A program made the translations under genes and the position numbers. From contig CAADYO010000001.1 of the NCBI GenBank assembly GCA_900753325.1, positions 66,546-130,545 on the forward strand: 64,000 bases of DNA, in the 5' to 3' direction. The stretch comes from Bacilli bacterium (GTDB lineage: Bacteria; Bacillota_I; Bacilli_A; RF39; UBA660). Of the stretch, positions 29,661-50,053 are shown in pieces. How positions within the stretch are numbered: the first letter of the stretch is position 1; each line of letters opens with the position of its first letter. The notes under the pieces were generated by a model that was not told where the DNA came from, searched no databases, and was given only the letters and a program-made list of their open reading frames with translations.

Positions 29661-31625
29661 TTAAATATTTCCTGTTTCTACTTTTATATCATTTTCTTCG
29701 CCTATTACAATTCCTTCTACATCCTTAAATCTATCGACTGTTGGATCATAAACTGGAACTTCATCTTTTATTTCTGGTGATGTTGCTAGAAATTTATCTA
29801 ATTTTAATTTAATCTGATCTTTACTAAAAGGTTTGGCAATATAATCGGCGAATCCTTCATCAAGATATTTTTGTTCACATCCTGATATAGCGTCTGCTGT
29901 TAAAGCAATTACTGGTGTTTTAAACAATGGATTCTTCTTTAATTCTTTTAAAGCTGTTTCACCTGACATAATTGGCATCATAATATCCATAAGAATTAAG
30001 TCATACTTTCTTCCTAAATTGATTTTATTAAGACATTCTTGACCATTTTCGCATTCATCTATTTGAAGATTGAATGAAGCTAGGGCACGTTTCGCAACTT
30101 TAATGTTTAGTTTGTTATCATCAACTATTAAGATTTTTTTATCACTGTAGTTGACTTCTTTTAGTCTAAGTGCTATTTCTGTTGTATTGATTAGTTGTGT
30201 ATCAGTTAATGGCTTGGTTTCAAAAGATATTTTTTGTGGAAGTTGGACCATAAAGATAGAACCTTTTCCATAACTACTTTGAACATTTATTTTTCCGCCC
30301 ATCATTTCAACTAGCTTCTTGGTAATAGCAAGTCCTAAGCCAGTTCCTTCAGCTGTGGAGCTTTTTTCAATGTCTAAACGTTCAAATTTGGTGAATAATT
30401 TATTAATATCTTCGGCTTTTATTCCACGCCCAGTATCTTTTACAGTTATTATTAATAAACAGTCACTACCCTGATTAATACATTTAGTAGTAAATTCAAC
30501 TGTACCAGAATCTGTATATTTAATAGCATTTGATAATAAATTATTAATTACTTGCTTTACATGAATTCTGTCTCCAATTAATTGATATGGGATATCTTCA
30601 GCAATATTAGTTTTTAGTTCTAATTGCTTATCACAAATTCTAGTAGCATTTACTTTAGCTAAAGTTTCAGCCTCTTTACGATAATTATAGGTTGTGTCAA
30701 TTATTTCTAATTTGTCACTTTCTATTTTATTAATATCCATGATGTTTCCAACTATTTCTAGTAAAGTACGAGAAGCAGCTACTACATCGTCTAAATCTTC
30801 TTTCATATTACTTGGAATATCTTCTCTTTCGGCCATATCTTCAGATAAGCCAACAATGGCATTTAGAGGTGTTCTAATTTCATGAGACATACTTGATAAG
30901 AAATCACTTTTAGCATGATTGGCTTTTTCAGCTTGTTCTTTTGCAATATTTAATTCCGCTATCATTTTTAAATCCGGATTTTCAATAGTAAAGAACATAA
31001 TTAGATTAACATAGGCCATTACAAATGGTTCAAATATAATACTTGGAAACATAGTTCTTATAAATACACCACATACAAGTAGGAAAAGCATTGTATATAT
31101 TGGTATATATTTTTTATTAGTAATTTCTATTTTTCTGGTTGCTATAGAAATCAGTGCTATTGTTATAATTCCAATTATTAAAATAATAGTATTGATAAAG
31201 GCAATTGAATAGGAAACACCAGATGAATCAAGAATTTCATTTGTATTTATAACATCAATTTTGGAAAAAACAATTAATAATGCAAAAACTGTATTTATTA
31301 TTATAACACTTTTCGCAAAAATTGAATCTTTCACTTCTCGCCCTATAGATATTGTATATACATATAATAATAAATACATTATCCAATAAGTAATAAATAA
31401 ATAGTCAAACTTTAGTAAAGTACCTACTAAATCAACACTTACGCTTGGAACTTTTTTTGCTATAACAATGACTACTAAATCATATACAGCTTGACATATA
31501 TTAATGGCTAGTAATTTATGATATAATCTTGTTTCTTCATTATTGGCATTCCTTTTTGTTCTAAAAATTACATTAACTAATAATGTAATTAAAAATGTTG
31601 CAATAGGAAAATATATACAACTCAT
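29661..31625 (-). CDS. Hybrid sensor histidine kinase with a polytopic (about 6-7 TM) N-terminal sensor, HisKA, HATPase_c and a C-terminal receiver domain
   Basis: The 654-aa ORF has an H-box ([11 protein letters not shown]). It has N/G boxes (NAIKYT, DTGRGI, GTGLGL). The receiver has LIVDDN, LMDIMMP and the conserved Lys in AKP. Confidence 0.8.
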
Positions 31626-31675
31626 TTGCTACACCTCTTATTTTGTTACTATTTGTATTTAGTATAGCAGAACAA

Positions 31676-31804
31676 ACGACAAATTTCAATTTATAAATTT
31701 CAATTTGTCGTTTAATCGTCACCAATCAAATTTCCTACTTTACAAAATAGAATAACCTATATTCTCCATAGACTTAAATTTGCAACAGTCGCTGTCGTAC
31801 TAAT
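31676..31804. repeat. IS200/IS605-family right-end (RE) region downstream of the tnpB remnant; copy 1 of a 2-copy repeat
   Basis: This stretch shares about 85% identity over about 90 nt with 49133..49222. It contains a subterminal palindrome GACAAATT...AATTTGTC and lies immediately 3' of the tnpB zinc-ribbon coding end. Confidence 0.55.
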
Positions 31805-31822
31805 TATTTTATTTATATTTCT

Positions 31823-32465
31823 TTAACTATTTTGACAATGTATTCTTAATTCTTCAAACATAATATTTATACTGGCATTTATATCTCTATCATTTTCGCA
31901 TCCACAATTTAAACATGTCCAGTTTCTAACTTCCAAATTATTTGTTTCTTGTGTTATTTCATCACAATGACTACATTTTTTACTGCTTGGAAAGCATGTA
32001 TCTACTTGATAATAATATTTTCCAAGTAAATTACTTTGCCATTGAAGCATTTGATATATTTTATTAAAAATGACATCTAGTATATTTTTAGCTAAATTGT
32101 GATTACTACTCATTTCTTTAACATTTAATTTTCACTTACAATGATGTCATGTTATTTTACTTAACACAGGTCCTACTTTGTCAAATATAACGCTTACATA
32201 ATATTTATTTTTTGTCTCTTTTTCTACAGTCGCATTTATTATTCTACCATTAATTTTTTCTAATTTTCTATAACCTCTAACATCTACAAATTCAAGTTTT
32301 GGTAATTTTATCTTTTTATTTTTTAAATCTTGGATAATTCGTTCTTTTAGAAAAATAATTTTTAAAACTATCTTCTAAATTGAAAACAACACATCTCAAA
32401 CTACAAGAGTCTACTTCCTTTAAGAATGAATATTCGATATATAAACTTTTTATTTCGCTACACAT
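31823..32465 (-). pseudogene. Degraded IS200/IS605-family tnpB (OrfB) remnant
   Basis: The 96-aa ORF ends with the TnpB zinc ribbon (CSHCDEITQETNNLEVRNWTCLNCGCENDRDINASINI). Upstream, in two other frames, are ...FLKEVDSCSLRCVVFNLEDSFKNYFSKRTNYPRFKK and IKLPKLEFVDVRGYRKLEKINGRIINATVEKETKNKYYVSVIFD, which match the TnpB middle region. It is interrupted by stops and frameshifts, and the N-terminal and RuvC parts are missing. Confidence 0.65.
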
Positions 32466-32487
32466 AATAAATAAAAAAATGCATTTT

Positions 32488-48144: not shown

Positions 48145-49023
48145 TTATTGCATTTCTTTGAAACATAATGTTTTTTCAATTACATTTCTAACATCAGTTT
48201 CTGTAAATGGTTTACCTAACATATCAATAATTGGATATTTAAAAGCTTTTTCAATTGTTTCCTTTGTTGAGTCTCCAGAAATAATTGATACAGGCATTTC
48301 TGCAAATAATTGTTGCTCGTTCATATAATTTAAAACGGCAAATCCATCTACTTTTGGCATGTTTAAGTCGAGTAATATAGCCACTATTTGTTGATTAGAG
48401 GTATTAGCTTTAATAATGTTTAAAGCTTCTTCTCCGTCTCTTGCAAAACCTACATTATATTTTTCACTAAAGATTCTTTTTACAAAGTTGCGAATTATTG
48501 TTGAATCATCAGCTACTAGTATGGTCTTTTTTGTGTATACTTCTGCTGGTGGAAGATTTGATTGGACTGGAGCTGGTGTTGGAGCTGGTTGTGGAGCTGC
48601 TGGAGTTGGTGTTGAAGCTTCTGGTGTAGGCACAGGTGTTGTTCCTTCTCCTTCTGCATTTGACTCTGGCGAAATGTATTTTTTGACAATATTAATAGTT
48701 CTTTCAACCTCATCTATCAAAGATTGATAGTTTTCGTATACATAAAAAACGTCGCCTTCTTTACTTTTCATTTCGTGATTATAAGCAAGTTCTGCGAGCT
48801 TTGTAAAGCCAAAATATTTAGCATCACTTTTTAATGAATGAACATAAATTGCATAGTTTGGCATATCTTTTTCATCTTTATACTTTTGCAATTTAGCTAA
48901 TTTTTCTTTAGCGCTTACTAAAAACTCCCCAACAGTTTCATTGTATGTATCAATATCTCCAAATAATTCCAGACTCTTATTTACGTCTACTCCGTTTGAT
49001 ATTAAATAATTTACATCGTACAT
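48145..49023 (-). CDS. Hpt-domain / response-regulator receiver fusion protein (phosphorelay intermediate)
   Basis: The 292-aa ORF has an N-terminal Hpt motif (HSLKSDAKYFG). A P/T/A-rich linker follows. The C-terminal REC domain has DD (ADDS), a phosphoacceptor Asp (LLDLNMP) and a conserved Lys (GKP). Confidence 0.7.
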   Translation of the reverse strand: MYDVNYLISNGVDVNKSLELFGDIDTYNETVGEFLVSAKEKLAKLQKYKDEKDMPNYAIYVHSLKSDAKYFGFTKLAELAYNHEMKSKEGDVFYVYENYQSLIDEVERTINIVKKYISPESNAEGEGTTPVPTPEASTPTPAAPQPAPTPAPVQSNLPPAEVYTKKTILVADDSTIIRNFVKRIFSEKYNVGFARDGEEALNIIKANTSNQQIVAILLDLNMPKVDGFAVLNYMNEQQLFAEMPVSIISGDSTKETIEKAFKYPIIDMLGKPFTETDVRNVIEKTLCFKEMQ

Positions 49024-49132
49024 AGTATATTGTCACCTTCACATTCTTAATCTACACTATGATTATACCATATATTTGTCGTTTATCAATCGTTTTTTTC
49101 AATATAAGTATAAAATTTACACTAGAATAAAA

Positions 49133-49222
49133 GACAAATTTCAATTTGTCGTTTGGTCGTCACCAATCAAATTCCCTACTTCACAAAAATAGCGTAACCT
49201 CTATTTCCCATAGGCTCGCTGC
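49133..49222. repeat. Orphan copy of the IS200/IS605-family RE repeat (no adjacent tnpB)
   Basis: GACAAATTTCAATTTGTCgtttggtcgtcaccaatcaaattccctacttcacaaaaatagcgtaacctctatttcccataggctcgctgccgtactaatc aligns with 31678..31804 in the same orientation. It carries a perfect 8-bp stem and 2-nt loop hairpin at its outer end. Confidence 0.5.
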
Positions 49223-49354
49223 CGTACTAATCATTTTTATGATTTTTTTTAATTATTTTGATAACATATTAAACATAACATTTATTTGTTTGCTTTTTTC
49301 GACGGTTGTATTTATTATTCTACATTAAAATTAAAAAAATAATTAATTTCTTAA

Positions 49355-50053
49355 TTATTTTCGATGATTATATATTATTGGGTATGGATTATCATATTTA
49401 TCTAGAGTTGCTGTTTTTAGTGTTCCTAAACCTGCTGTTTCTACACTTGCTGCAGCATCATATATTATATTGCATTGCCAATCTGTCCAAATCTCATCTA
49501 ATTCATATTCATCTTTTTCAGATAGCATATCAGACAAAGCTATGACAAAATCTGTTTTAGTCTCACAAGCTCTTTGAATCATATCTGATGTAGCTTCCTC
49601 TGGCATATATCCAATTATTAAATCCGTATTTTCTAAGCTTACACTGCAATCAAAGCGTTGCTTTCGAAGAATTAAATTTGGATATGGTATTCTTGATGGA
49701 ATTATTAGTCTTGGGTCATATACTGTAATGGTTCCGGTCTGTTGTCTCATGGCAATATATTTTGCTAAACTGGGTATTCTTCCGCCTCCAACTTCCAAAA
49801 TACGTTTATTAATTCCATGAACTTGTTCAATTAAATTAAGAAATCCTAAATACAAATTATGCTCTGGTTCCATCAAGTCTAGTTCAGCATATAACTGACG
49901 AACTAACTCTGGTGAAAAGTCTGTTACCATACCAGAAGAATACCAGCTTAAAATTTGTTTTATTTCTTCTTCTGTATAATCATTTTCATGTAGGACTAAG
50001 TATTCAGTTATTTTCTTTTTTAATTCTTCTTCTGTTATATTTTTTTTCAGCAT
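49355..50053 (-). CDS. Hypothetical protein, possibly a SAM-dependent methyltransferase-like fold
   Basis: The 232-aa ORF has a glycine-rich ILEVGGGRIPSLAKY segment. There is no firm motif assignment. Confidence 0.4.
   Translation of the reverse strand: MLKKNITEEELKKKITEYLVLHENDYTEEEIKQILSWYSSGMVTDFSPELVRQLYAELDLMEPEHNLYLGFLNLIEQVHGINKRILEVGGGRIPSLAKYIAMRQQTGTITVYDPRLIIPSRIPYPNLILRKQRFDCSVSLENTDLIIGYMPEEATSDMIQRACETKTDFVIALSDMLSEKDEYELDEIWTDWQCNIIYDAAASVETAGLGTLKTATLDKYDNPYPIIYNHRK

Follow-up and report, generated by a model that had tools for sequence, protein, structure and literature searches.

The window, which is the whole 64,000-nucleotide stretch of Bacilli bacterium DNA analysed here, has a G+C content of 29% and contains a short repeat between two host genes of the minus strand. 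One of these is an ORF of 232 aa (49355-50053), for which no Pfam or NCBIfam match was found; it has a Rossmann/SAM-methyltransferase-like G-loop (ILEVGGGRIP), and one of its distant homologues carries the annotation NAD(P)-dependent oxidoreductase. The other encodes Hpt and receiver domains (48145-49023). The intergenic region between them, given in the preliminary description as about 330 bp, measures 331 bp (49024-49354). The repeat within it is termed copy B here, and its counterpart beside a tnpB remnant near 31.7 kb is termed copy A. The biologically meaningful strand of the repeat is the minus strand, which is the sense strand of tnpB, and on this strand copy B spans about 200 bp, from 49328 to 49125. 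The features of the locus, read along the minus strand, are as follows.

49326..49360, minus strand: host terminator of the 232-aa gene, with hairpin AAATAATTAA-GAAA-TTAATTATTT (49337-49360) and T-run (49326-49336)
49273..49328, minus strand: internal tnpB fragment of 56 nt, codons ..NGRIINATVEKETKNKYYV (Smith-Waterman alignment against copy A)
49273-49285, minus strand: junction, carrying the 13-nt repeat ATAAATGTTATGT (comparison with the intact elements L079 and L048)
49249..49273, minus strand: decayed last codons of tnpB, TTTAATATGTTATCAAAATAATTAA (..MFE..HCQNS* in copy A), with an extra deletion of about 12 nt
49229-49249, minus strand: A/T-rich spacer between the last codons of tnpB and the right end
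49125..49228, minus strand: right end (RE), what remains of an omega-RNA-type scaffold, AGTACGG to terminal TTTTATTC (nhmmer E=1.3e-16; covariance model R1, 63.4 bits)
49216..49224, minus strand: remnant of helix S1, CGGCAG-CGA (alignment, pair count)
49187..49206, minus strand: helix S2, hairpin AAATAGAG-GTTA-CGCTATTT with one A/G mismatch
49152..49171, minus strand: helix S3, TTTGAT-TGGTGACG-ACCAAA, around the conserved GGTGACGA loop
49133..49150, minus strand: terminal (subterminal) hairpin, helix S4, GACAAATT-GA-AATTTGTC, a perfect 8-bp stem
49125..49132, minus strand: conserved terminal motif TTTTATTC, family consensus TTTTGTTC (alignments)
49108..49124, minus strand: right flank TAGTGTAAATTTTATAC, the guide position of any omega-RNA from copy B, as follows from the RE boundary
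49062..49089, minus strand: host promoter of the Hpt-receiver gene, TTGATA-16-TATAAT with TG, outside the element and 35 nt past the end of the RE

The repeat is real and far above chance. Alignment of 49133-49222 with the tnpB-adjacent copy gives 77 identical positions in 89 ungapped columns (86.5%). When copy B was searched against the window by blastn, it matched 31695..31834 with E=4e-25, and no third copy was found in the 64 kb. A nhmmer profile of 20 full-length elements, prepared without window sequences, matched only A and B (E=1.3e-16 for B), as did covariance model R1, also built without window sequence, with scores of 80 bits for A (E=1e-22) and 63.4 bits for B (E=3e-17). A chance or low-complexity match between AT-rich stretches, which the low G+C content of the window might suggest, can be dismissed on the blastn value and on the independent profiles (E=1e-16 to 3e-17). 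The shared core carries G/C-rich conserved blocks, for example GGTGACGA, AGTACGGCAGCGA and GCCTATGG, so that the match is not one of low complexity. The perfect hairpin reported in the preliminary description, GACAAATT-tc-AATTTGTC, is present at 49133-49150 with its 8-bp stem. The homology length of about 90 nt given there is too short, since homology extends from 49125 to about 49273 and a second block follows at 49273-49328.

The tnpB pieces that lie 5' of copy A on the minus strand identify this copy as the right end of a tnpB pseudogene. Its features are the following.

31823..32466, minus strand: tnpB pseudogene of copy A (Pfam, translation, nhmmer segments)
32176-32329 and 32322-32466, minus strand: upstream tnpB fragments (translation, nhmmer)
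31823-32113, minus strand: 96-aa TNB-domain ORF, Cas12f1-like/TnpB (PF07282, E=6e-17)
31670..31801, minus strand: RE/omega-RNA scaffold, with an extended terminal hairpin at 31677-31710 (R1, 80 bits, E=1e-22)

The region from RuvC-I to RuvC-II has been deleted from this tnpB, and a frameshift is present in an A-run. Profile search and alignment revealed no left end (LE) in copy A. At the same locus in other strains, one contig (L147) is longer than L145 and L146 by 27 nt in the stretch from the acyltransferase gene to the TNB ORF, an indel polymorphism inside the pseudogene.

A genome scan was employed in which a pattern made from the conserved blocks was run over 185,579 species-representative genomes. 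The scan returned at least 118 stretches. Nearly all of the matches listed come from gut MAGs labelled Bacilli, Mollicutes, Tenericutes or Candidatus Onthousia, with several copies per genome among them, and the family numbers about 100 or more copies, chiefly in gut Bacilli/Mollicutes-like genomes. The preliminary description had considered that a wide search might reveal a generic low-complexity motif with no IS association; the motif was instead found tied to tnpB elements. Classifiable copies were assigned by tblastn with a reconstructed TnpB and by nhmmer with the full-element profile, and among the matches listed they fall into four classes.

full-length LE+tnpB+RE: 26 copies
LE+RE with internal deletions, some MITE-like: 17 copies
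5'-truncated: 10 copies
classed as solo RE: 18 copies, several of which are the B locus in other strains or have short LEs missed by the profile

Two of the copies, L079 and L048, share 90-92% nucleotide identity with copy A and carry intact tnpB genes of 375 aa with D-E-D RuvC motifs and the same RE downstream. The TnpB scores 299.6 bits against the NCBIfam model guided_TnpB (cutoff 100). The left end is well defined in 22 full copies, begins with TAAGGAA.. or ATAGGAA.., and holds the tnpB promoter TTGACR-17-TACACT/TATAAT. No tnpA was found between LE and tnpB in the aligned full-length copies. Past the tnpB stop codon, the DNA is conserved in L006, L001 and copy A, and ends in a hairpin followed by TTTTGTTC(T), where homology to A and B stops. 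In copy B, homology to all the other copies ends at 49125..49132, which places the RE boundary there. The match to the RE of intact tnpB elements bears out the description of copy B as an orphan IS605-family right end.

A protein search with the 96-aa ORF of copy A recovered 68 clusters of homologues, almost all of about 95 aa. A conserved mini-protein consisting of TNB alone, or a programmed frameshift, was considered for these ORFs and rejected: the lesions differ, copy A having a frameshift in an A-run, L006 having lost 2 nt and L001 being truncated on its 5' side, and the 26 full-length copies among the scan matches listed also rule it out. In L006, a near-full tnpB is split by its deletion into 277 aa and 95 aa. 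L006, L001 and copy A are, by their sequences, independent pseudogenes whose short ORFs all start at one conserved Met.

The A/B subfamily also includes MITE/PATE-like mini-elements of about 390 nt, found at L049, L074, L080, L105 and L127. In each, the LE with its tnpB promoter is followed by some 12 codons from the start of the gene, some 8 from its end, and the RE. The five share one common deletion junction and lie in five different genomic contexts. Judged from this arrangement, they are in effect promoter-driven elements that encode an omega-RNA only.

The family comparison also changes how the differences between copies A and B are read. The 16 nt taken for an insertion in A correspond to a deletion of 15 nt from B, because the segment is present in all of the other roughly 105 distinct copies among the matches listed (variant in a few). 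The supposed 14-nt duplication in A is an extended-hairpin variant common to L074, L080, L083, L105, L127 and others, and it does not represent private decay.

To obtain the structure encoded by the RE, 50 distinct copies were aligned and folded by RNAalifold. The predicted fold comprises four hairpins and a long-range helix. Across the alignment, 97.6% of cells are paired (87.4% in shuffles), and 14 of the 27 pairs show double, compensatory changes. The covariation score is 0.361, against 0.164 +/- 0.008 in shuffled alignments, none of 500 shuffles attaining 0.361, and it falls to 0.02-0.10 when the partners are slid by 1-3 columns. Three of the four pairs of helix S3 covary across the family. 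Helix S4 shows compensatory changes such as GACAAAAT/ATTTTGTC and GAATAAAA../..TTTTATTC. G-U pairs, some invariant and some frequent, assign the structure to the sense strand of tnpB. On this comparative evidence, the RE of the family encodes a structured RNA of about 105-130 nt with a hairpin and TTTTGTTC at its end, a scaffold of the omega-RNA/reRNA type. By analogy with known systems, its guide would be the DNA directly past the RE. The fold came from the family alignment only, single-sequence folding giving z scores of -1.4 for B and -2.3 for A. Rfam gave no relevant match for B, A, the window or the RE of intact L079. A simple terminator scan did not call the AT-rich RE hairpin in either A or B.

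Within this scaffold, copy B retains intact helices S2, S3 and S4 and the long-range helix. The 3' arm of S1 and the following linker, 15 nt in all (CTGTTGCAAATTTAA in copy A), are deleted in B alone, and with them all six S1 pairs are gone. S1 is intact in nearly all of the other 49 aligned copies (96.6% of cells paired). In total, 8 of 27 scaffold pairs are broken in B and 4 of 27 in A. These are the two worst of the 50 aligned copies, B being the most degraded, a pattern of breakage that fits relics not under selection.

Outside the scaffold, copy B preserves traces of how it was reduced. The stretch 49273-49328 aligns with the tnpB of copy A at a Smith-Waterman score of 65 (500 shuffles: 26.2 +/- 3.3, maximum 39). 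By eye, the stretch upstream of B had resembled the LE promoter of L079, which pointed to a decayed LE+RE mini-element; alignment and profile show it to be an internal fragment of tnpB. No LE was found in B by alignment or by nhmmer at the LE positions of the full-element profile. The 13-nt string ATAAAT(A/G)TTATGT (ATAAATATTATGT) occurs twice in the intact tnpB of L079 and L048, 596 nt apart, once as codons KYYV.. and once as ..NIMFE.., and on each side of the junction the flank of B matches the respective copy of the repeat. Copy B has thus lost 596 bp between direct repeats. The direct repeat is a built-in deletion hotspot in the tnpB of the subfamily, and its counterparts in the window lie in the region of 32196-32208 and 31858-31870.

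That no transposase lies nearby, as the preliminary description stated, does not hold in the strict sense, since scraps of tnpB adjoin copy B; the gene itself has been destroyed. Its proposal of a solo RE left by deletion is upheld by these scraps, by the 13-nt-repeat junction, by the lack of an LE and by the empty syntenic loci described below, yet the relic is not a clean solo RE.

Comparison with related genomes provides the history of the site. Copy B is present in all contigs that encode an identical 232-aa protein (L014-L020), at 99.7-100% identity, and is therefore fixed in the species; copy A is likewise fixed across strains. Orthologues of the 232-aa protein with 53-61% identity keep the gene order, Exo_endo_phos gene, 232-aa gene and Hpt-receiver gene, with much shorter gaps before the last of these.

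window: 331 bp
L141-143: 96 bp
L144: 110 bp
L139/140: about 70 bp on either side of an extra gene

Copy B is absent from the syntenic sites of L141-143, L144, L139/140 and L083, the last of which also has no 232-aa gene. The promoter of the Hpt-receiver gene is conserved in the empty sites L141, L144, L139 and L083. In the syntenic loci of relatives, a terminator likewise stands at the insertion point, and nothing separates it from the promoter. The empty gap of L144 thus consists of a terminator hairpin and TTTTTTTT and then the conserved promoter; the corresponding order in the window is hairpin and T-run, relic, flank, and promoter TTGATA-16-TATAAT. The terminator at 49326..49360 is the left flank of the old insertion, and the left edge of the relic abuts its T-run. 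Another IS copy, of the extended-hairpin variant, lies in L083 (3246-3391, minus strand) near obg/rpmA, about 2 kb from the empty B site. In the window, an ordinary ribosomal protein L21 leader (RF00559; 53054-53125, minus strand; 37.6 bits, gathering score 36) precedes rplU, a Prp-peptidase gene and rpmA.

The position of copy B is typical for the element, as the family usually lies behind terminator-like hairpins. When the 44 nt preceding the LE were folded, 17 of the 25 distinct flanks gave structures of far higher stability than shuffled sequence (mean z = -2.7). In these flanks, a hairpin is followed by a T-run and AT(C/T/A)TA and then by the LE, TAAGGAA; examples within L021-L138 are L026, L033, L046, L048, L071 and L122. 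The family thus shows an apparent preference for sites behind terminators, either as a T-rich TAM or as real targeting of terminators. Such siting is not known to have been described as a preference of the IS200/IS605 family.

Taken together, copy B (minus strand, 49328 to 49125) very probably goes back to a single insertion of a tnpB-only IS200/IS605-family element, of which it is a decaying remnant that can no longer move. The element would have come in by single-strand transposition carried out by a TnpA acting in trans, as the absence of tnpA between LE and tnpB in aligned full-length copies suggests, and it would have landed past the terminator of the 232-aa gene and ahead of the Hpt-receiver promoter. 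As long as the element was intact, TnpB guided by the RE transcript would have cut sites lacking the element, which would have favoured retention. The background for insertion with TnpA in trans and for omega-RNA-guided cutting of empty sites by TnpB has been set out for the IS200/IS605 family (Meers et al., 2023, bioRxiv 10.1101/2023.03.14.532601). Later, copy B would have lost the LE and the first ~540 nt, the 596 bp by slippage or recombination between the two 13-nt direct repeats in tnpB, and also about 12 nt near the stop codon and the 15 nt that include the 3' arm of helix 1.

Having no LE, copy B can neither be excised nor copied. Its broken scaffold and the lack of a cognate TnpB in the window make it most likely that the relic has no activity; its only effect would be to lengthen the gap between two host genes by about 200 bp and to place a second weak hairpin-plus-T-run there. 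A guide function at present is probably lacking for the same reasons, helix 1 being broken and the 64-kb window containing no cognate TnpB. In ISDra2, some parts of the scaffold can be removed without loss of activity, and stem 1, pseudoknot and triplex are conserved elements (review PMC13639567). Since scaffold parts are dispensable there, the loss of S1 is no proof of a dead RNA; as a sign of one it is suggestive, short of decisive.

The principal alternative is that copy B is a working stand-alone omega-RNA gene on the minus strand, which would use a TnpB in trans and the guide TAGTGTAAATTTTATAC to cut chromosomes free of the relic and so secure its own retention. Three of the four hairpins and the long-range helix are intact, the covariance model still scores B at 63 bits, the locus is fixed in the species, and intact TnpBs, in elements 90-92% identical to the remnant of A, exist in related genomes. 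Moreover, gene-less PATEs often encode omega-RNAs that need to be used in trans (Meers et al., 2023). Against this stand the half-deleted helix 1, a lesion found in B alone, and the decay of the scaffold, which is worse in B and A than in any other of the 50 copies and suggests that the structure is not under selection. B lacks the LE promoter from which the MITE-like copies are driven, and promoter-like matches just upstream are weak, none being convincing. The sole tnpB of the 64-kb window is a pseudogene, and the putative guides of A and B have no targets in the window beyond chance. A working guide gene is accordingly unlikely. A wider form of the proposal, in which A and B are both kept as gene-less guide-RNA loci whose scaffolds, transcribed from the minus strand, are loaded by a TnpB elsewhere in this small genome and police their own loci against loss, carries the same small probability. 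More widely still, the family may be specialised for insertion directly behind intrinsic terminators, and mini-elements made of a promoter and an omega-RNA may arise from it as parasites of TnpB in trans.

A MITE- or PATE-like non-autonomous element that TnpA could mobilise, which the preliminary description also offered for copy B, is very improbable. Genuine mini-elements of about 390 nt do exist in the subfamily, in their five contexts with one junction, and elements of this kind have been described for IS200/IS605 (Meers et al., 2023); copy B, however, has no match to the LE positions of the full-element profile and no alignable LE, its internal junction is unlike that of the mini-elements, and its structure occurs at one locus alone among the copies compared (the orthologous L014-L020). 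The proximity of both relics to two-component genes on the same strand, the Hpt-receiver gene for B and a hybrid histidine kinase gene with a receiver domain (29661-31625, minus strand) for A, raises the further idea of a shared cis-regulatory element, whether an operator palindrome, part of a promoter or an insulating terminator. In copy A, the RE hairpin provides a -35-like TTGAAA, and the host flank a TG-extended TATACT at 17-nt spacing (31661-31689, minus strand), 36 nt before the start of the kinase gene; a T-run comes after the terminal hairpin on the minus strand. The same sequence, however, is found behind tnpB in more than 60 unrelated contexts among the matches listed, and relatives without B have the conserved promoter of the Hpt-receiver gene all the same. 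This promoter lies downstream of B, so that B is outside the 5' UTR; the 232-aa gene retains its own terminator, and the RE hairpin was not called by the terminator scan. A shared regulatory role is thus held to be improbable, and the two-component neighbours are judged a coincidence because the family occurs in many other contexts. The RE of copy A may nevertheless add a -35 to a hybrid IS-host promoter ahead of the kinase gene, as its boxes suggest; a TATAAT/TATACT box also directly follows the RE in L048, L042, L006 and L117.

The family resembles known tnpB-only IS200/IS605 elements in several respects. The protein has the HTH, OrfB_IS605 and TNB layout with a D-E-D triad, no tnpA lies between the promoter-bearing LE and tnpB, and the RE has a subterminal hairpin and a conserved terminal motif. 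As with IS605 omega-RNA (reRNA), the DNA between the tnpB stop codon and the RE boundary encodes a structured RNA in the same sense as tnpB, and as in IS200/IS605, insertion occurs beside a conserved flank motif, relatives having an empty site without extra bases. The tnpB-only form is the non-autonomous form of most IS605-family elements (Meers et al., 2023). The family RNA differs from known omega-RNAs in that it has no Rfam match and its scaffold begins after the stop codon, not overlapping much of the ORF. Flanks of the LE that mostly carry a terminator-like hairpin and T-run are a further difference from tnpB-only IS200/IS605.

PATEs and MITE-like IS605 derivatives, which need TnpA and TnpB in trans (Meers et al., 2023), have their equivalents in the subfamily, where gene-less forms that keep the ends and the omega-RNA region also exist. 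Copy B differs from a PATE in having one end only, as a solo RE, and from an intact IS200/IS605 element in being a fragment that lacks both LE and ORF and whose helix 1 is broken. It is like solo ends and pseudogenised IS remnants: one-ended, fixed in the species, absent from sister taxa and shaped by deletions at short direct repeats. Nothing notable separates it from IS remnants in general, the fragment happening to be the end that encodes the guide RNA. Copy B is thus probably an ordinary IS relic of a known kind, immobile and inert.

The B locus itself is of little consequence, a 200-bp repeat that is explained as transposon debris, with its annotation corrected to a minus-strand relic that reaches 49328 and includes tnpB scraps. 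As by-products, the analysis gives a TnpB/omega-RNA family that is well sampled in uncultured gut Bacilli and has a scaffold supported by covariation and not represented in Rfam, together with intact predicted nucleases of 375 aa, natural mini-elements and an apparent preference for sites behind terminators. These by-products are of modest use, and the family could be a possible starting point for studies of TnpB and TAM.
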